From Spizellomyces punctatus DAOM BR117 (Eukaryota), in assembly GCA_000182565.2 (NCBI GenBank), contig KQ257458.1: a DNA stretch of 64,000 bases; one strand, given 5' to 3'. Under the pieces are notes generated by a model. The model did no database searches and was not told the origin of the DNA. It saw only the letters and a list, made by a program, of their open reading frames with translations. Of this stretch, positions 26,377-55,200 are shown one piece after another (within the stretch, counting starts at the first letter, position 1; every line of letters begins with the position of its first letter). A program made the translations under genes and the position numbers.

Positions 26377-28215
26377 CTATCTATCTACTAAGGACAATAT
26401 CCATCGATCCCACAATGTCTCAAACTTCACCATAGCCTCTGCTTTCTCCTGCTGTCCCATGCCAGCATAGGTAATTCCATTGGAAGCAAGCTTCTTCAGG
26501 GAAGCAAGATCCAATGACTCAAATGCCATGTAGACTGACGTGAGGGAAAGGAAGTTAAGGTGAGGGAGAGGAATTTAAGGTGAGTAGTATATGCTGAGAA
26601 CATACCAGGACCCACTCACTCACCTTGATAGTAGTCGTAAGAAACACCTTCATATCCAAAAACCCCAGGATCATCCGATGCCAATGACACCTGTACTCCC
26701 TTCAGTAACAAATCAATCATCGGATGGCCACGGAGATCTCCAATATAGCCAAGGAGTTGGTTGGAAATCGGGGCAACCTCCACCGCAATGTCGCTGTTGA
26801 TGAACTTCTCAATTAGTCCCGGATGGTGGGAAAGCGAGAAGGCATGTCCAACGCGCTTGGTGTTGAGGAGATAGGCATCGTAGAGATTTGTATCTGGGGG
26901 AACTCCAGAGCGCGTCGTTTCGCCGGCATGGAAGATGAAGGGAAGACTGGTGGACTGCTCTGATGCGCTTGCTTGAGCTTTTCGCAGGGTATCGACCAGT
27001 GGTCTGAGTGCGGATGTCTATAAAGGAGGTTAATTAGTTGAGAGCATAATCCGCTCATCCACGAAATCTACGAATTCCAACCTCTTCGTGCCCGACGAGA
27101 TCATATCCAATGATCTGATCGCCATGAGTTTTTCGCAATTCAATAGCGTGCATCAGTGAATTTTCAATATCAACTGTCGGGTTAAATCGCAGGTCTTGGT
27201 AAATGAATCTCAAGTCTTGGAAATGCGGATGGTCCTTTCTGAACTTGTCTACAATGTCCCGAACACTGTCCAGCACGCTCGAGAAGTTGCGGCGTGTTCC
27301 ATCTAGATGATAGGTCTCCCATCTTGAAGAACGGAGTTCAATGTAAGTGAGCCCATCATTGTGATATTGTTCTAGTAGCCGAGTGATATATGCCTCAAAC
27401 ATCGGTTGATATTGGATCAGCGACCCCAATGTGTCAAAAACGAGGTCAAATTTAGCCCACGCTTTTTCCTCGGTGGGGTACTCACTAGCATGTATTTCCG
27501 CTGATTAGAGAGATGGTGGAAGAACAGAGTCGCGAAAACTCACTTTGAGATAACGCTATTTTGGTGTTCGACGAATGCATCAAATGCAGAGGGTCCACCT
27601 GGGAAGGAGCTACGAGCATGTTGACAAGAAGCCCATTCATCACGGGGTAATTGTGTGGACGAGAAATTGAAAAGAGGTAATTGGATACTTGCATTACCCC
27701 TTTCGTCAAAGGTGGGGTAAACTCTGTTCACAAATCTGGGAGCGAGCGACGATCATTAGTTTTCGACCTCAGACATTTAAAAGGCTATCTGATACTCACT
27801 TTAAATAGCAGTTTCCGATATCCTCAGCTGCTGTTTTCACTATCCACTTGATGTCCAGCATGGCTTCCAAATGCCCGTGCAAAAAACCGCCCTTTGGCAT
27901 AGACCTGATGACTTTGAATAATTCTGTGCTGTCTATCACAGGCTTGGCGAGTGAGAAGTGTAAGGCAGGGGGAAATTGACTTTGAGCTTTCAATGCCGTG
28001 GTCTCTTTTTCGCGAAGAGCATGAAGGTAAGCATTCGCCTTCTTATCCATGTCTGATAGGACAATGTCATTATCAAAACGATTTGCGGAATCATAAAGGA
28101 CCAGTTGGTTTCGTTGCACTGTGTAGGTGGGATCGGGTGATCTTGCAATAGGGGCCGCTATGACAGGCGCAATTAGGAAAGTGAAATACGCTAGAATTCT
28201 GTATATTGGTGCCAT
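26377..28215 (-). CDS. ADA2: Secreted adenosine deaminase 2 / ADGF (CECR1-like), multi-exon
   Basis: Signal-peptide-like MAPIYRILAYFTFLIAPVIAA; MPKGGFLHGH, YIELR, GYDLVGHEE, FHAGET, KRVGHA, EVAPISNQLLG, SDDP. Confidence 0.92.
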
Positions 28216-29126
28216 ATTGACATATAGATTATAGGTGGGGAAATCAGCAGAGTCCTCCAATCCCCATTGGGGGGGGATGTGGAGAAGCACACTGCAAAGG
28301 AGAAGCGATGATGAGCTCATGCCCATGGCTTGCATGGCTTTGCAAAGCCTCGATTTCACACGTGGCAAATATCGCGCGCCCTCCGAAGCGAACGGACGAC
28401 GAAAGGGCAGTGCAGAGCAGAGCTGGAAAGCGATAAACATACTTGCTACTGGAGTGAATCAAGCAGCCTTAAGCCGATATTTTATGGATCTTGGCTGAGG
28501 TGATTACTGCGGTCGTTCCATTTGCATAAATTCTATGAGATGCTTCCGTTGGCAAAGAAAGTATAATAATAGTGACTTTGTGGGCCGTAGCGACTATAAG
28601 CCAAGATTGGCGGAGCAGGCGGTGAGGAGGAAGCGGAAGCGAACGCAAATCCAACCTTTTATGCGTCAGAAACTGCACCCTTTGATAATGAGATCCGACT
28701 GGAATTTATGCAACAAAAGCTTCAAGGACATTCGAAATTATGTACTCTACAGTCAGCAATATCTGCTCTGTGTACGTTTCGAGCATCCCAATTACGGATC
28801 ATGAGTGAAAATAAACGAAAAAACAAAAACAAAATGTCCAGAACTTGACGTCTGCAAGCAAACTTCTTTACTTGCTGTGCCACGCAATGTCCGACAGACG
28901 TCCGAAATCCCTCCTTCCCCTGGTGGATTGCTTCGGTTAGCAAATACGTTTTATCAAAACAATCGGCGATTTCGATCTCGGCCTCGTACCTCCACATTGT
29001 TTGATTCTTGATAGAATAGCTACCGACTGCTGCACAAGGTCTTCTGACCCGTATCTTTCTTCGCTGCCCTCAATTTAGAACATCAAAAGTTTTCGTTTTC
29101 CCCGTTGACTAGTGTTGGCCAAGCCC

Positions 29127-31471
29127 ATGTCAACATCCAAACCTGATTCATCAGAGTCTTCAGCAACACCAACGAACAAAGGATGGAATTTGGATGCGCC
29201 ATCCTATGTTCCTGACAACTCGGCGCTCGCGCAGACACCGGCGACGGACCCCAGACGGGGCCATCATGGTGGCGGCCAAAGTGGTCGTGGCCGAGGGAGA
29301 GGTCAGCGAGGACGAGGGAATTTTCGCGGCAGGTCCGCATATAAGGGTGGGTCAGGCTATGGATATGAATATCCGTGGCAACCAAGGGTATACTATGGGG
29401 AAGAGGGATATGTGCATTATGGGAGCCCAGACGCAAGAAGATATCATACTGATGCCGTTTTGCTTGCCGGAGGAGACCCTGGATATGGTGGCGACGGGGG
29501 AGTAGGTGCGCTGTCTGACCTTTTGTAATTTTATTGCCTCACCAAAGCTCGCTAATCAATCATACAGGCTACACAGAAGGGTATTCGTACATCAACCCAG
29601 GTCCGGACAACGTAAGTCTACCGTCATACCAGAGCCAAGATTTTGCAGATCGGTCGCTGTCGTCCGATACAGAGCGCGACAATGAAACGGATAAAGCAGA
29701 ATCTTTGGCAGATTCAGTCATAACGTCCTCCACGTATACCGATGCGACATCGAGCTCCTTTGTTGAATCGCTCATCACCCAATCCTCTCGAGGAAGTGGG
29801 TACAGGAATCTGAATCAGCAGCATCGTCTAGGCGGACAGGCCTCCTTGAGACAGCAAGCTTCGATGAACTCTGAGGAACGAAGATTGGAGCAGCGGCAAA
29901 AGCAGATAGACTATGGCAAGAATACGGTAGGATATAAGCGATATATTGCGATGGTGCCAAAGTGAGTGACAAGATTGGTCCGGCTACCTAATTACACCAA
30001 TATTTGTGCTCATCAGTTTTGTCACAAGGCACAAGCGTAAGAGAGGGGATCCGGAGACGCCAAAGAAACACGCCAAATGCAGCAAGAGATGTTGGGATGG
30101 TTTGATAAGACATTGGCGGAGAAAGCTGCATGAATGGGACCCACCAGAAATGAAGGAACAGGGGCTATCGGATCTTGAGTTCTCGGATATTATCAAGGAA
30201 TCTGTCCGGACAACCACTGATCAGCTAGAGGAGAACTTGAAGCACCCAACGGAACTAGCTGACTGGACTTTTCCTCCCGTGACGAAGGAACCTTTGCGTG
30301 TGAAACCCACTCCGCTAGGCGAAAGTCTGAAACAGCCGCAAGCGGCCAGGTACAGATCGACACGTTTATAGAATTGCGTCTAGGATTTGACATCCCATTG
30401 CATGATGAAATAGGAACCTAGGCTTCGGGTCCACACCACCTCCAACAGAGCCTCTTCGGCCACTTTGGGACCAGTTTTCGATAGATGAGCTGGATCAAAA
30501 GTTTGCATCTAAATTAAGACCTTGGGAGACGTTCGAGGGCTTCGGTCCAAGTCCAACCCGCCGGACAACAAAGCGCGGAGATGATCCTTTATCGTGGGCG
30601 GAATTTTCCATTGACGAATTGGACGAGAAGTTTGGTCATAAGTTGCGCATATCCGAAGCAATTGATTTAACATACAGGTGAGGAGTTACGGTTCTTGTTT
30701 TATGGACGATGATGCTAACCGAACTGGAATCACCAAGTCCATTAAATAACTCGACGAGCTCACCTTTCACCCCTTCCCCTCGATCTAAGCTCGCTCCGAT
30801 TGGGTATGTTCAAAAGTGGATATCAGTTTAGACATATAAGGCAGCGCGGTAATTTTATCCTCGCCCTAGTCGACCGACCCCGGTGAAGAGATTGAACCCT
30901 ATGGCAGCTAGTTTTGATGTGCTTGGCGCGTCACCGATCAGCAGGTACATTGTTGAGATTATTTTGCCCAATTCATTAAGCCGCGTCGAGCTTTATCTCT
31001 TACTTTTTTGATGGATTCCGGCTTACAGCGATACCCATCATACCGGGGACTCGTCGGTAACACCTAGAACACATAGATCCAACAGTATCGGGTGCGTTCT
31101 TTTTTGGGGTCTCTACATTTGATTCGGCATTACCGACGCCTCACATTTCTACCAGTTTCTCATATTCGGATCCCCGGCGATTGCACAACCACCAAATGGA
31201 GGGCTCTGCAAGCCCTCTAAGTCTGTACGAGGAAGAAGATTCTGTTATGGTCATATACGATCCAGCCGCGTCATCATCGGTTCCCTCCTTGACGTCATCT
31301 ACGCTACCCTCCCGGGCGGCAAGTCCTTCCAGGACTGCGATGGGAAGAGAAGCAACACCGCAGTCGCTTTGGGGGAATGGGAGTCCTAACAAGGGGTCTC
31401 CAGGAATTGGGCGAGTGGGCGCAGGAGTAGGAGAGGTGGGTGGCGGGACTCTCTTAGATGGCGTCTGGTAA
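29127..31471 (+). CDS. SLBP: Histone RNA stem-loop binding protein (SLBP-domain protein), ~8 exons
   Basis: RRLEQRQKQIDYGKNTVGYKRYIAMVPK|HKRKRGDPETPKKHAKCSKRCWDGLIRHWRRKLHEWDPP matches the SLBP RNA-binding domain; downstream exon joins checked through the LNPMAASF exon stay in frame; last exon ends TAA 31471. Confidence 0.9.
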
Positions 31472-31909
31472 GAAAAAATGGCCGAATCTTTGGTTGGCTT
31501 GTTTTCAGCTGTTGCCAAAAGTCGGAGGTGCTTGGCGCCTCTTGTGTGTATTTAACCTCTGTGCCCACAGCATGACAATTGAAATAAAAGTTCTGTCGTG
31601 TCTAACTCGTCATGGAGACATTAGTACTAAGGCCAGAAGTTTCCAATGAATTCGCCACCACATTGTCATTGTTTTAGGATTACTATGTTGTGCTATTTCA
31701 AGAAAGTATTATATATACAGTTAAGACCGACACCATTCTCAGCCGTCTCCACCAAAGATCGTCTGTCAGAGATCTTCTTTGTCCAGCAGACCTCAGGACG
31801 AACTAGTGTTCAACCATCGCTCAAATCAAGATCCGCCAGCCTCTTTTTTATCTCATCAAGGTTTCTAACGGAGCCCTCTGCGGTACCACTACAACACCAC
31901 CAATAAGCT

Positions 31910-32244
31910 TCAGCGAGCTTCGAATTGTACCACTGGAAGAAAAAAAAAACGAAATCTCAGTCAGAATCCGCTTGTGATCCAATTTCGACTGACTCAGACT
32001 TGGTTTACTTACTTCTCTTTGTGCGCTTCTTGTACATGATTCGGTATCCGCATTCTTTACAGCGAATGGGTTCTCGGGGTTTTATGGTGTTGTCTTTCCC
32101 GCATTCTGGGGTGTCCGTTGGGTGAGCCAACAAAATGGGGAGCCCCAATTGCTACTGCAGATATGGCTACTCACCACCGCATGTGTAGGTAACCTCGACT
32201 CGTGGGGGCTCGAGTCCTCTTTGGAAGCCTTGCTGTCCGTCCAT
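31910..32244 (-). CDS. RPB12: RNA polymerases I/II/III shared subunit Rpb12 (RPABC4), 3 exons; absent from the ORF track
   Basis: [61 protein letters not shown]. Confidence 0.97.
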
Positions 32245-32396: not shown

Positions 32397-33583
32397 ATGG
32401 TCAAAGACACACAGCCAAGTAACAACGAAAGGAACTTTATACTGCAAGCTCTAGATCAAGGATTACGGATAGATGGGCGGGGACCACATGATGTGAGAAA
32501 AATCTCGATTTCATTAGGACCCCAGTTTGGGCATTCTGAAGTTCGTTTGGGAAAGACACGGTGAGATATGATGTGTCTGCGAACCTGTTCAAGAGACTAG
32601 GACCTTGATGCTCATTTGGAGTGGTTTATTTGAGACCTCAGAGTGACTGCAAATGTTTCGTGTGAGATTGTGCGACCACGTCCAAGTAACCCGACAGAGG
32701 GACTGGTCCAGTTCACCACCGACTTTTCACCCATGGCTTCTCCCGCGTTTGAGGAGGGAAGGTACGAATTGAGAAGTGGAGGGATTAGCGTCGTGGTGTG
32801 TAAAATGTACGCTGACTTGGGGTTGTCAGTCTATCAGAAGAAGACGTTCTTGTGAGCCGACTGTTGGAGAAGGCGCTGAAGCAGAGTCGAGCCATTGATA
32901 CCGAAGGACTTTGCATTGTTGCGGGGGAGAAAGTGTGGCAGTTGAGGGTGGATCTCCGCGTCTTGGATCACGAGGGAAACATTATCGATTGTGCTTGTGT
33001 TGCAGCCATTGCAGCACTGCAGCATTTCAAACGACCGGATGTCACGGTTATCGGCGATGACGTTACCATTGTGAGTTGCCAACCGATGTATTTGCCTATC
33101 ATTGTTATCTGACTGAACTTGCCTGGGCCTTCACGTAGCATACAATTGAAGAACGAAGTGGCATTCCTCTGAGTGTGCATCACATACCGATATGTGTTAC
33201 CTTTGCATTTTTTGCCAATGGGTACGGATCGATTGATTATTCGCCCAGAAGGGGTAATACTTACCATGTTATCCCACAGAGAACGACAGGTAGCGGATCC
33301 CTCATTGCTCGAGGAACAGGTTCGGGAAGGCGACATGACTTTTGTTATAAACAAACATCGCGAGATTTGCACTTTGTCAAAAGCCGGGGGAATACCAATT
33401 ACTGTAGAGCAGGTCTTGCACTGTGCTAATATTGCTACGGCGAAATCAGAGGAAATAACAGCGTTGATTCAGGAGGCTTTGGCGAGGGTGAGTTAACCAC
33501 ATATGCCAGTGAACACATGTAATAATACTTACCATACCATGTTTCCCGGTTATCAGCACAACGAAAGCATTGAAAGCGTATAA
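32397..33583 (+). CDS. RRP45: Exosome core subunit Rrp45/EXOSC9, multi-exon
   Basis: MVKDTQPSNNERNFILQALDQGLRIDGR, FSPMASPAFEEGR, SRAIDTEGLCIVAGEKVWQLRVDLRVLDHEGNIID, HFKRPDVTV, PLSVHHIPICVTF. Confidence 0.96.
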
Positions 33584-52232: not shown

Positions 52233-55200
52233 GTGTTATAGATCTCAACAAAGAAAGCCCAAATGAAGATGTTTCTGATCAATCACTAATGGTTGTTGCA
52301 AAAGTTGATGGGCCCGCCTGGAGTGCAGCAATATCTGTCGAGGCATAACATCTACTCATCTTACAAATAGATACCAAAGGCTTGGCAGTGACAATGGATG
52401 TGCTACCATCGTTCTATGAGAAGAATCAGTCGTCAAAGGCATAATGGCATTTTTGTAATGGTTGAGTTTTCTTTCATTTTGGTTAATCTGTCGGAATGTA
52501 GTTACATAATCACATTTGACTCGATCAGGTTGATCAACTTTGTCGTGAGATCGTTGCGCAAGTTATCTCGAATCTATACGAGCATTCGAGAGCTGTGGAC
52601 ATCTACTAGGCAAGAAGCTTGTTCCTGCTCGGTGTGTGCTTTTGACTTGCGCTTCACATAATTAACGTGCGTGAAAGATCAGGAAAATAGCTGTTTTATC
52701 AGCGGGGAAGACGCAGCCAGGGATAGCTTGGCGTGTATCAATGTCCGCCAGCATAGGTATAGGCAGAAGCCGAAAACGTATCCGCCAGCCGTTAGGTAAT
52801 GCAGACTAACGTTCTGCTGCCGGGAAGCCAAGGTGTTGCCAGTGGGCTGAATATCCCGTAGACATCGATTGTCCTTAGCTTCACCTCCAACATACCCTGT
52901 TTGCACTGCACGCTCACATGGCCAACCTCGTTGTAGTTTGTTGGTAGCAAACTCTTCAGGTCCTTGGTCTAATTGCAACCTTGCCTGTCGATATAAACAA
53001 TGGATGTCCTAAGGAAGATTTGAATCAAAGCCGTCTTGGCTGCAGACTCCCACTGTTGGTTTGCCTGACAGAACTTTTTCATAACTTTTGTCTTCGCATG
53101 CTTTTTTCAGACCAATTTGTTGGGACGGACACCAGCAGGCGTCTGTCGACACAATTTCCTGCTGGCCAGTTTTCCAAAACAGCTTTCATGCATTGTGACC
53201 TCCTGGGAGTGGAAAGCCCATTTCCACTCACAATCGGAGATAATCTTCTTCAGAATCCGAAGAGGACGTGAATTTGTTCAGAGCGAAGGAGTAAGTTGCC
53301 TATGCCACGCGGCAGAGTGGGTAAGACGTCAAAAAGGCGCAGGAAGATATCTTTCTTCCTGCACGAAACAGGCAATAGAGTTTGTATCGAAACGTACGTA
53401 GTGCGGCTGGGCAAATGTCCCACGGAGCATGGTGTGCGAGCGCAACGAGCGACCTCGTTCAAACCGTTTGCTGCTTTCCTGTGCATCTTCATTCTTAGCT
53501 TCACTACAGCAGCCACCACAAATGGGTTGATTCATATCGCAATGGACAATGTGTACCTGATCTGCACGCATGAAATTTTCGTATGTATAGAAGATTACGG
53601 GACATGTTTTCAAATAGTTCACAAGCACAAAATGAACTTGGAGATAGCTCAATTCTCAGCTCCACCGTTGAGAAACGCATTATGATGAAGGCGATCTGGA
53701 AAGTACACTGAAAACCAGCGCCACCTCGAACGACCAAAATTGCAAGCACAAAGGTTCACGCAGCAAGCTCATCCCTTATCGATCCCTCGAGATTTCATCC
53801 GGCTCTTCCATGCGTCCGACATACGCACATTGCTCAAAGAGCACCACTTGCCACGCCTAACAACCAACCAATTCAGCAGTCCTTTTAGTCACACTCGTAT
53901 CCAACCCACCAATAACAAGCAAAGCAGGACAATGCAAATCACCAACAGCCAGGTTTGCTCGGCTTTTGGGCCAAATGATTGGAATCATTTCGCGAACTTT
54001 AGCCCCACATGACCGCTTCGGCCGGCTGGTTGTCCGACTCCATCCGCCCATTTTCCCCAATATAGATCACTATACTTAAAGGAACATATAGCATGATAGG
54101 TACAATTATGCGTCGCCATGGCGGAAGGATTCGATATTCGAAAGCGGAATGTTCCGTTCAAGTGTTCTATGGCAGTAATCTATTATGGTATAAAGCACAC
54201 GACCCAACAGACTCCGGCTTTTAGCCGCGGCTCTTGTGGTTCAAAAAAATCACGGCTTACCCCATTGCCATCACTTGCCCGAGGCTACAAAAAGCAGCAC
54301 CCTCCCTTCCCAAACCAATAACGACCAACAACGGTTCTCACTTGATGCCCAGACTGTACGAGTACGTCAATTATCGAACCGGTCAAGTATGGTCCCGAGA
54401 CATATCATATCTCTCTTTTTTCTTGATTCTGCTGGTCATGTTGTCGCTTCACGTGCTGGTGTCAATGTGGATGTGGGGTCTCCTGTAATCGACGATCAGA
54501 CGAGCACAATAATTGGCCCGCAGACAACCGAACCCTTGATCTACCAAACCACCGTGGTCGTCGTGGGATGATGGGCATGATGTTGGATTTGCCATCATGG
54601 GTGTTGAATGGCTATATGGACATTCCGGGGGAACCTATTGGGAATGCCTGCTTCACGGGATACACCCCGCTCTGTGGATCTTCTTTTTGCGTTGCCCTGT
54701 TGGAAGGCTTTGACGTTTGCCATCAAGACGATCAGTGCGGCGGTTACAGCCTTTTTGGATGAGCATTTCAGTACGGCCGGGCAATGGCGATAGCCCATCC
54801 ACTGAAGGTGTTTTATAAACTCACAAAAATAGGTTGTAACGAAATTTAACAGTAGCATAGTAGTCTGTACCTAATAAAATTGCCATATTTACGTATTGGA
54901 AGAGAATGTCGCGAGTGATGAAGGAAAGTATCGTTAGGAGTTGAACGGAGGACCAGAACTTTTCAAGCAATGCAGGGCAACTGCCCGTCGAAAGTCTGGG
55001 CATCTTCGTGTGTTTTCTTCCGTTTTGGACAATAGCACATCCTTGAGCCTGATCTTTGCACCAAGAGCGTCAAGAATACTGTGCTCATATCAGAATTGGA
55101 TCAGCGGTCACTGATTGTCATCAGTTCTTAAGACATATAGTAATTCCCATACAGGCTTCGTCCTACTTGCGTCCGCCTTACTGAGGGACTAGGTCATAGG

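Follow-up and report, generated by a model that had tools for sequence, protein, structure and literature searches.

Does a chytrid fungus possess an SLBP (stem-loop-binding protein) like that of animals, and does the protein act there on histone mRNAs? The question is raised by a locus within a 64,000-nucleotide stretch (the window) of the genome of Spizellomyces punctatus DAOM BR117, contig KQ257458.1. The textbook view had long been that SLBP is absent from fungi and that fungal histone mRNAs are polyadenylated only. A reading of the DNA made from its letters alone (the sequence-only reading) had placed a spliced SLBP domain at 29873-30146, in what it took to be a fungus-like genome. The genome is indeed fungal, outside Dikarya, that of a chytrid; the residues quoted are present on the + strand, and mapping with Pfam puts the domain at 29873-30143, in almost exact agreement. 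The chytrid SLBP is thus real, but it is already known, from its name in UniRef and from a preprint of October 2026 (bioRxiv 10.64898/2026.10.14.759114; hereafter the preprint) that reports SLBP orthologs in Chytridiomycota, Blastocladiomycota and Rozella. Our literature search on fungal SLBP found no other paper treating the subject.

An eight-exon gene and its RNA-binding domain

Tblastn of P0001, a near-identical protein, against the window delineates an SLBP gene of eight exons at 29127-31471 on the + strand, running from start to stop codon (Table 1). Its seven introns are each bounded by GT..AG and are 60-84 nt long, and the joined exons form an open frame of 625 amino acids that matches at 100% P0165, the S. 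punctatus DAOM BR117 protein SPPG_05550, to which UniRef gives the name histone RNA hairpin-binding domain protein. The product is disordered for the most part. Sense RNA reads (run X8, + side) cover the 3' end of the gene to a depth of 63.1 in 31422-31535 and 14.7 in 31536-31649, and to 0 further on; of two other runs, X1 placed a single 151-nt contig and X9 none. The gene is intact, transcribed and conserved across chytrids. Among the reads mapped to the window no read joints fall within the gene, so the splice sites are without confirmation from reads; the junctions are supported by agreement with the database gene model and by colinearity with SLBPs of solved structure.

That colinearity is seen where the domain is divided. 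Exon 2 ends at 29961 with ...YIAMVP and two bases of a Lys codon, and exon 3, from 30029, reads HKRKRGDPETPKK...HEWDPP; the two halves match adjoining stretches of Drosophila SLBP (4tux_A), and the splice is therefore colinear with a solved SLBP. P0001, which in tblastn matches the window product across the whole RNA-binding domain, aligns with the Pfam model PF15247 (SLBP_RNA_bind) over profile positions 2-70 of 70, at 109.5 bits and E 8e-32, a value that excludes a match by chance; the envelope, residues 229-296, gives the Pfam-mapped range in the window. Comparison with the Pfam model had been put forward in the sequence-only reading as a check, and the check bears out the domain, since either exon half passes the cut-off of 27 bits by itself (Table 1). 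A sequence search of the PDB matched the SLBPs of fly (4tux, E 1.8e-22) and of human (4l8r_C, E 4e-20). Judged by its sequence, the domain is a true SLBP RNA-binding domain, complete and interrupted by one intron, and the gene would be a genuine fungal ortholog of metazoan SLBP.

The domain is also predicted to fold like the solved SLBP RNA-binding domain. The AlphaFold2 model has a pLDDT of 97-98 across approximately residues 221-300, and its top PDB match in Foldseek is 4qoz_C (TM by target 0.89, rmsd 0.7 A, 53% identity over 68 columns), followed by 4tuw, 4l8r and 4tux, the top six chains all being SLBP; because the AlphaFold2 training set included these PDB entries, the match in fold counts for less than it would seem to.

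Table 1. Features of the S. punctatus SLBP gene, in window coordinates; residue numbers are those of the 625-aa product unless 4tux_A is named.
Feature	Position	Strand	Basis and details
Exons 1-4	29127-29505, 29568-29961, 30029-30349, 30414-30677	+	tblastn of P0001
Exons 5-8	30738-30803, 30870-30944, 31029-31091, 31156-31471	+	tblastn of P0001
PAM2-like motif WNLDAPSYVP, N-terminal	29184..29213	+	residues 20-29; alignment A1
Arg-Gly-rich stretch	29253..29336	+	residues 43-70, read from translation
Conserved block with SLITQSSR at its end	29714..29797	+	residues 176-203, about 30 residues ahead of the domain
RNA-binding domain, first part (end of exon 2)	29873..29961	+	PF15247, 44.5 bits, profile 2-31; 4tux_A residues 10-37
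Intron 2, inside the RNA-binding domain	29962..30028	+	67 nt, GTGAGT..AAG
RNA-binding domain, second part (start of exon 3)	30029..30143	+	residues 258-296; PF15247, 61 bits, profile 26-70; 4tux_A residues 39-82
TPKK, counterpart of TPNK (T268-K271)	30057..30068	+	opposite TPNK in the human and fly proteins
R278 codon	30087..30089	+	aligned to the second Arg of human SRRSW (4l8r_C); K-R opposite R-R
Twin C-terminal motif, copy 1 (W..FSIDELDxKF..KLR, then ETFEGFG)	30457..30555	+	residues 380-412; alignment A1
Twin C-terminal motif, copy 2	30583..30660	+	residues 422-447; alignment A1
3' UTR, approximate	31472..31649	+	sense read coverage stops by 31649

Conserved residues and the role of the protein

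Two sites with reported roles in human SLBP can be followed into the chytrid protein. Alignment to the human and fly proteins upholds the earlier observation that the Thr-Pro of TPNK is kept, as TPKK, and T268 is invariant in all 113 aligned family members. R278 lies opposite the second Arg of human SRRSW, which would be Arg181 if human numbering runs ten residues on from Thr171. All 13 chytrid sequences compared have R278, and, like 23 further positions of the domain, it is at least 90% conserved among the 113; SPPG_05550 has the consensus residue at all of these positions. In human SLBP, Thr171 is reported to be a phospho-switch within TPNK, and Arg181 the sole base-specific contact to the stem-loop (PMC10388802), this counterpart of R278 reading the guanine in the stem's second base pair.

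The chytrid protein thus has in common with human (4L8R, 4QOZ) and Drosophila (4TUW, 4TUX, 4TV0) SLBP a domain of about 70 residues, 51-56% identical over the aligned model, as well as the Thr-Pro motif and the Arg181 counterpart. It differs from them in its length of 625 aa, in having TPKK in place of TPNK, and in the addition of an N-terminal peptide resembling PAM2, of the SLxTQSSR block and of a C-terminal pair of helices; fungi in general, as the preprint describes them, differ also in being without the SLIP1-binding motif and without co-occurring U7 snRNP partners.

Taken as a whole, these data are best explained by a genuine chytrid SLBP that acts on hairpin-bearing histone mRNAs, an explanation to which we assign a probability of about 0.7. 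On some histone mRNAs at least, the protein would bind a histone-type 3' hairpin, at the 5' side of the hairpin, while nuclei replicate in the growing sporangium. The expression analysis in the preprint took the coding sequence of S. punctatus SLBP, and reports it to be enriched in multinucleate growth stages alongside core histones.

What the protein does once bound is a separate matter. The sequence-only reading had interpreted the gene as a sign of animal-like control of histone mRNAs; of this, the true SLBP RNA-binding domain is supported and the animal-like control is not, the preprint describing a remodelled pathway. According to that source, stem-loops are found at some chytrid histone loci only, fungal candidates resemble the metazoan hairpin poorly (a mean of 5.8 of 16 positions), and chytrid histone transcripts carry poly(A) tails; LSM10 and LSM11, which are U7-specific, never occur together in one fungal genome; and the SLIP1-binding motif is absent from the N-terminal 150 residues searched in all non-metazoan SLBPs, fungal ones included. 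Patchy stem-loops, poly(A) tails and lack of U7 machinery, as given there, indicate that control in chytrids is not animal-like, and since the metazoan partners are, on the preprint's evidence, apparently missing from fungi, chytrid SLBP probably does not direct U7-dependent cleavage. The Spizellomyces protein is itself one of the early-diverging fungal SLBPs with which the preprint deals, and its conserved domain and absent SLIP1 motif agree with the description given there. Its C-terminal region had no PDB match to an SLBP peptide. More likely it would act on histone mRNAs that bear the hairpin and often a poly(A) tail as well, controlling how stable they are or how they are translated. A precedent for SLBP action on histone mRNAs with poly(A) comes from Drosophila, whose maternal histone mRNAs are reported to undergo SLBP-dependent polyadenylation (PMC11997800); that case differs in belonging to an animal germline in which the U7 machinery is present, and has no direct tie to the chytrid protein.

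The window itself holds no histone genes, and a six-frame regular-expression search of it for histone, MLLE and RNP1 motifs gave nothing. Rfam produced no matches in the window at gathering scores and four weak ones at E <= 5, Histone3 (RF00032) not among them.

The patchiness and poor conservation of chytrid stem-loops and the poly(A) tails of the histone transcripts, together with the lack of U7 partners and of the SLIP1-binding motif reported for fungi in the preprint, are also what would be expected if the SLBP fold had been kept but re-purposed, to bind non-histone hairpins or to serve as a general mRNP adaptor, leaving histone mRNAs to ordinary polyadenylation alone. The biological role could have shifted, because about nine tenths of this 625-aa protein lies outside the domain, in large lineage-specific regions with motifs of their own. 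We nevertheless judge such re-purposing unlikely, though with enough in its favour to be kept in view: the hairpin-specificity residue R278 and the Thr-Pro switch are conserved across the 113 family members, and the preprint reports both that the gene is expressed together with core histones at the replicating stage and that some chytrid histone loci have stem-loops.

The similarity of the domain to those of insect and human SLBP could alternatively mean that the gene is foreign to the fungus, whether as a contaminant in the assembly or as a recent acquisition from an animal. This is very improbable, given the setting and the relatives of the gene. It is surrounded by ordinary housekeeping genes, and its own seven short introns resemble those of its neighbours, the next gene having one of 80 nt. 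The SLBP family numbers 2573 cluster representatives at E <= 0.001, and orthologs occur in 13 named chytrid genera as well as in Entophlyctis, Piromyces and Gonapodya; full-length relatives are limited to related chytrids (six representatives at E <= 1e-30), and domain-level orthologs span several chytrid orders. Chance similarity or a dead pseudogene, for which nothing was found, is refuted by the strength of the match to the family model, a 625-codon frame open over eight exons, the conservation of the locus among genera and the detection of sense transcripts.

Conserved peptides outside the domain

If the protein is a chytrid SLBP acting on hairpin-bearing histone mRNAs, control might be exerted through lineage-specific linear motifs, namely the PAM2-like peptide of the N-terminal region and the paired helices of the C-terminal part. 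A third conserved element, the block that precedes the domain, includes positions that are invariant or nearly so across 13 chytrid sequences (D164, S194, T197 and Q198), and of the 78 stored proteins in which an RBD-core pattern was matched, 21 have its SLxTQSSR motif.

The PAM2-like motif is present in all seven close full-length relatives and in none of six other chytrid SLBPs (alignment A1). It has the likeness of known PAM2 peptides (those of Paip2, eRF3 and ataxin-2, and the PAM2w of LARP4/LARP4B) in being short, N-terminal and in a disordered region, and in its residues at positions 3 (hydrophobic), 4 (Asn), 7 (Ala), 10 (aromatic) and 12 (Pro). It differs from them in having Leu at position 5 instead of Pro or Val, and in that, of the seven full-length P0001-type relatives, P0003 alone has Phe at position 10, the others having Tyr; in the published consensus (PMC2854688, PMC7356810) Phe at position 10 is termed invariant, with Trp taking its place in PAM2w. 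The published pattern applied strictly, hydrophobic-x-(P/V)-x-A-x-x-F-x-P, finds no P0001-type relative, and only P0095 and P0131 among 167 stored proteins. When the pattern is relaxed to allow also L or I at position 5, and F, Y or W at position 10, it recovers the N-terminal motif in eight of eight proteins (P0001-P0004, P0007-P0009 and P0165) and also matches P0046, giving in total 13 matches in 12 of the 167 proteins, against 1.3 expected from shuffles. The Pfam PAM2 family gave no match at E <= 10 to four full-length proteins or seven N-terminal segments, in searches where HMMER's filters drop most weak matches; the N-terminal 41 aa matched no PDB sequence at E <= 10; and residues 1-45 of P0165, used as the query of a word-indexed search, recovered P0001 alone among four candidates.

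The first copy of the twin motif is predicted to form a helix at residues 382-398 (pLDDT about 71-73), and the second to form short helices at 426-428 and 431-437 (pLDDT about 70 in the 431-440 block). The motif matched no Pfam family, and in the PDB search only two sequences at chance level (E 0.28 and 1.4); the ESM Atlas returned no usable feature match, and structure rows all with TM <0.35. We considered the FDF and (E/D)TFG peptides defined as binding DDX6 (PMC8514580), as in EDC3, LSM14/CAR-1 and Pat1, and rejected this identity: the chytrid motif reads FSIDELDxKF and ETFEGFG, not FDF and ETFG, the Pfam scan gave no FDF family, and none of EDC3, LSM14 and Pat1 came up in the PDB sequence search.

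The main text of the preprint contains no mention of PAM2, PABP, MLLE or Pab1, and its SLIP1 search was confined to the N-terminal 150 residues; the motifs outside the domain are on these grounds undescribed in that source, and the PAM2-like peptide and twin C-terminal helices of the close relatives seem to be new. Their sequences suggest a putative link to poly(A)-binding protein. More specifically, in Spizellomyces and its close relatives SLBP may have given up the animal SLIP1 route and connect directly with the poly(A) tail instead, with WNLDAPSYVP docking on the MLLE domain of PABP and the twin helices recruiting a further partner, a proposal that we make tentatively and rate as rather doubtful. 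If it were true, histone mRNA with a poly(A) tail in addition to its stem-loop would be read by a single SLBP-PABP unit, and the 'intermediate' stem-loop-plus-poly(A) state put forward for early fungi in the preprint would gain a molecular mechanism.

Implications for fungal histone mRNAs

To what is already known of chytrid SLBP, the gene model makes one useful addition, the intron that splits the domain. S. punctatus has been reported to be genetically transformable (PMC7213984), and the function of a fungal SLBP is therefore open to direct test; the conserved peptides outside the domain would provide mutable handles on how a stem-loop is read without U7 and SLIP1. An early-diverging fungus, on this evidence, appears to retain the RNA-recognition half of the animal histone-mRNA system.

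The SLBP gene and its transcription

The 625-residue protein P0001 of Spizellomyces sp. 'palustris', obtained by homolog search and 100% identical over exon 3, yielded by tblastn against the window an eight-exon model, whose exons, once joined, can be read without interruption through 625 codons; its seven introns, of 60-84 nt, all have GT..AG ends. Residue for residue, the window product is P0165 (SPPG_05550, XP_016607336.1) of Spizellomyces punctatus DAOM BR117, which UniRef names 'Histone RNA hairpin-binding protein RNA-binding domain-containing protein'; 24 of its 625 residues differ from those of P0001. The gene sits among ordinary genes: those nearby are tabulated, and further away lie genes for an acyl-CoA dehydrogenase, a sphingolipid desaturase, an NLE/WD40 protein and a ThrE-type protein.

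Features of the SLBP gene, its product and its neighbours
Feature	Position	Strand	Detail and basis
Adenosine deaminase-like ORF	27796-28458	-	SLBP neighbour
SLBP exons	29127-29505, 29568-29961, 30029-30349, 30414-30677, 30738-30803, 30870-30944, 31029-31091, 31156-31471	+	tblastn, joined by coordinates
Conserved block ending SLITQSSR	29714-29797	+	about 30 residues before the domain
Exon 2 end	29961	+	...QRQKQIDYGKNTVGYKRYIAMVP then 2 bases of a Lys codon; sequence read
Intron 2	29962-30028	+	67 nt, GTGAGT..AAG; sequence read
Exon 3 start	30029	+	HKRKRGDPETPKKHAKCSKRCWDGLIRHWRRKLHEWDPP; sequence read
RPABC4 zinc ribbon	32005-32151	-	SLBP neighbour
Exosome RNase PH subunit	32816-33496	+	SLBP neighbour
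WNLDAPSYVP	residues 20-29		PAM2-like; alignment A1
Arg-Gly-rich stretch	residues 43-70		
W..FSIDELDxKF..KLR, two copies	C-terminal		ETFEGFG after first copy; alignment A1

Transcription was followed in X8, a 3'-biased raw RNA-seq run whose species label matches that of the DNA data; about 6 in 100 of the run was read. Depth of reads with the first mate on the plus strand climbs from 3.5 (31194-31307) through 16.2 to 63.1 (31422-31535), the bin that contains the SLBP stop codon, then drops to 14.7 (31536-31649) and to 0 beyond. On the opposite side, reads of the convergent neighbour carry loose T runs before 31669 and 31672; these are its poly(A) tail, and therefore the first mate in X8 has RNA sense and the SLBP coverage is sense. 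No read joint lies within the SLBP gene in the X8 reads examined, so its introns are unconfirmed by reads.

The convergent neighbour (31669-32151, -) is highly expressed and encodes the zinc ribbon RNA polymerase subunit RPABC4 (PF03604, 55.9 bits). Going by the reads, it is polyadenylated at about 31669-31672 and has an 80-nt intron at 31933-32012, and SLBP coverage stops within some 20-70 nt of its 3' end. At 28839 (+), some 290 nt upstream of the SLBP start codon, 17 RNA molecules terminate; this is probably the 3' end of the gene upstream. A few reads with the first mate on the minus side (depth about 2) cover 29940-30053, in the intron and domain region, and could be antisense transcription or library noise.

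The RNA-binding domain

The residues that a sequence-only reading had recognised as an SLBP domain at 29873-30146 (+) are present as quoted, far beyond chance, and the Pfam SLBP model (PF15247, SLBP_RNA_bind; cut-off 27 bits), the check proposed there, recognises each exon half alone: 44.5 bits for exon 2 (profile positions 2-31) and 61 bits for exon 3 (positions 26-70). P0001 scores 109.5 bits (E 8e-32, positions 2-70 of 70) over residues 229-296, which correspond to 29873-30143; it is identical to the window product across the whole domain. The splice is colinear with a solved SLBP, since the two halves align with neighbouring stretches, residues 10-37 and 39-82, of the Drosophila chain 4tux_A.

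The best PDB sequence matches were fly SLBP (4tux, E 1.8e-22) and human SLBP (4l8r_C, E 4e-20). TPKK aligns under TPNK in these alignments, bearing out the Thr-Pro picked out by eye, and SKRCW under SRRSW of human SLBP. The counterparts of human Thr171 and Arg181 are T268 and R278, the aligned Arg being, as we take it from a count of ten residues from Thr171, human residue 181. Both are invariant in the 13 chytrid sequences of alignment A1; among 113 diverse family members T268 is again invariant, and R278 and 23 further domain positions are at least 90% conserved, the consensus residue always being that of this protein. Phosphorylation of Thr171 in human SLBP raises RNA affinity, and Arg181 is its sole residue in base-specific contact with the hairpin, according to the available part of PMC10388802.

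In an AlphaFold2 model built on the 113-member alignment, residues from about 221 to 300 reach pLDDT 97-98. The model's top Foldseek PDB match is 4qoz_C (TM by target 0.89, rmsd 0.7 A, 68 columns, 53% identity), followed by 4tuw, 4l8r and 4tux; the fold match mostly repeats the sequence match, because AlphaFold2 was trained on these entries. The protein belongs to the SLBP family by every feature examined.

Conserved elements outside the domain

Beyond the domain the model is disordered except for a short helix at 310-315 and short helices in the C-terminal stretches 382-398 and 426-437 (pLDDT about 70). Alignment A1 reveals four conserved linear elements there. The first, WNLDAPSYVP, is on alignment a conserved linear motif, present in 7/7 close full-length relatives and 0/6 other chytrid SLBPs. 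It resembles PAM2, the peptide bound by poly(A)-binding protein through its MLLE domain, whose published pattern, hydrophobic-x-(P/V)-x-A-x-x-F-x-P, is said to have invariant Ala7 and Phe10 (PMC2854688); position 10 is Trp in LARP4 and LARP4B (PMC7356810). The chytrid peptide fits at positions 3, 7 and 12, but has Leu at position 5 and Tyr at position 10 (Phe in P0003 only). With a relaxed pattern there were 13 matches, spread over 12 of the 167 proteins stored, where shuffles predict 1.3; they include all eight P0001-type proteins (P0001-P0004, P0007-P0009, P0165) and the environmental SLBP P0046 (LDVNASAYVP). Since the strict pattern matched no P0001-type protein, and Pfam scans of full-length proteins and N-terminal segments returned no PAM2 family, we offer PAM2 identity only as a hypothesis.

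The SLITQSSR block occurs in 21 of the 78 stored proteins matching a domain-core pattern, those whose source names were read all being chytrids. In the form SLxTQSSR it is found in chytrid SLBPs of several orders (P0005, P0006, P0010-P0014, P0030, P0034 and others) and was seen in none of the stored animal sequences; possibly it is a phosphorylation or partner site. The twin C-terminal motifs, with no relative in Pfam, PDB or ESM Atlas, are in nine stored proteins: seven of the eight P0001-type proteins, P0046 and its cluster mate P0168, P0009 being left out of the count because its truncated domain failed the pattern.

P0046 and P0168 (environmental, 426 aa) are more distant SLBPs organised in the three parts seen in the Spizellomyces protein—N-terminal LDVNASAYVP, RNA-binding domain, C-terminal WDEKF and FSGFG—so this set of motifs predates the close Spizellomyces relatives.

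Distribution and histone stem-loops

At E <= 0.001 an exhaustive HMMER search returned 2573 cluster representatives, a number that falls to 1333 at E <= 1e-10 and to 6 at E <= 1e-30. Only close relatives are similar over the full length, namely Geranomyces, Thoreauomyces, Powellomyces, Fimicolochytrium and Gaertneriomyces, placed by NCBI taxonomy in Spizellomycetales, and Phlyctochytrium arcticum, placed in Chytridiales. Domain-level orthologs occur in Batrachochytrium, Cladochytrium, Hyaloraphidium, Nowakowskiella, Polyrhizophydium, Rhizophlyctis, Entophlyctis, Piromyces and Gonapodya; other strong matches are from glaucophytes, amoebozoans and insects. Despite its Chytridiales filing, the P. 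arcticum protein (P0002) has an SLBP domain identical to that of Spizellomyces and all the lineage-specific motifs. P0022 (965 aa) combines, in precomputed Pfam, a DEAD-box helicase (PF00270) with the SLBP domain, perhaps through fusion or through merging of gene models.

Neither histone genes nor a Histone3 Rfam match were found in the 64-kb window; a weak SNORD41 (C/D-box snoRNA) match at 55062-55130 (-) is sub-threshold (27.9 bits, E 0.34; gathering score 41).

The central finding was known before, both through the annotation that this very protein carries in databases and through a preprint by Zhao, Bond and Ni Leathlobhair (2026-10-16; bioRxiv 10.64898/2026.10.14.759114), the only paper directly on the subject that a full-text search turned up. 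As far as its available text goes, Dikarya lack SLBP, whereas Chytridiomycota and other early-diverging fungi have it; stem-loops are patchily distributed in chytrids, at varying positions; stem-loops, poly(A) signals and poly(A) tails occur mixed at histone transcript ends; no fungal genome was found to have LSM10 and LSM11 together; the first 150 residues of fungal SLBPs hold no SLIP1-binding motif; and S. punctatus SLBP is enriched with core histones in multinucleate stages. Its main text makes no mention of PAM2, PABP, MLLE or Pab1. The absence of an SLBP ortholog from a Cryptococcus genome (Cryptococcus preprint) fits loss in Dikarya. What seems to be new is confined to the conserved elements beyond the domain, the PAM2-like peptide foremost.

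The host, called fungus-like in the sequence-only reading, is a chytrid (Chytridiomycota, Spizellomycetales), a true fungus outside Dikarya. The animal-like stem-loop control proposed in that reading is unsupported as worded, the survey, in the part available, pointing to a remodelled, U7-less pathway with both poly(A) and stem-loops. The protein likely binds histone hairpins in this fungus, and to the whole explanation, an SLBP ortholog that binds histone hairpins, we give a probability of roughly 0.7.
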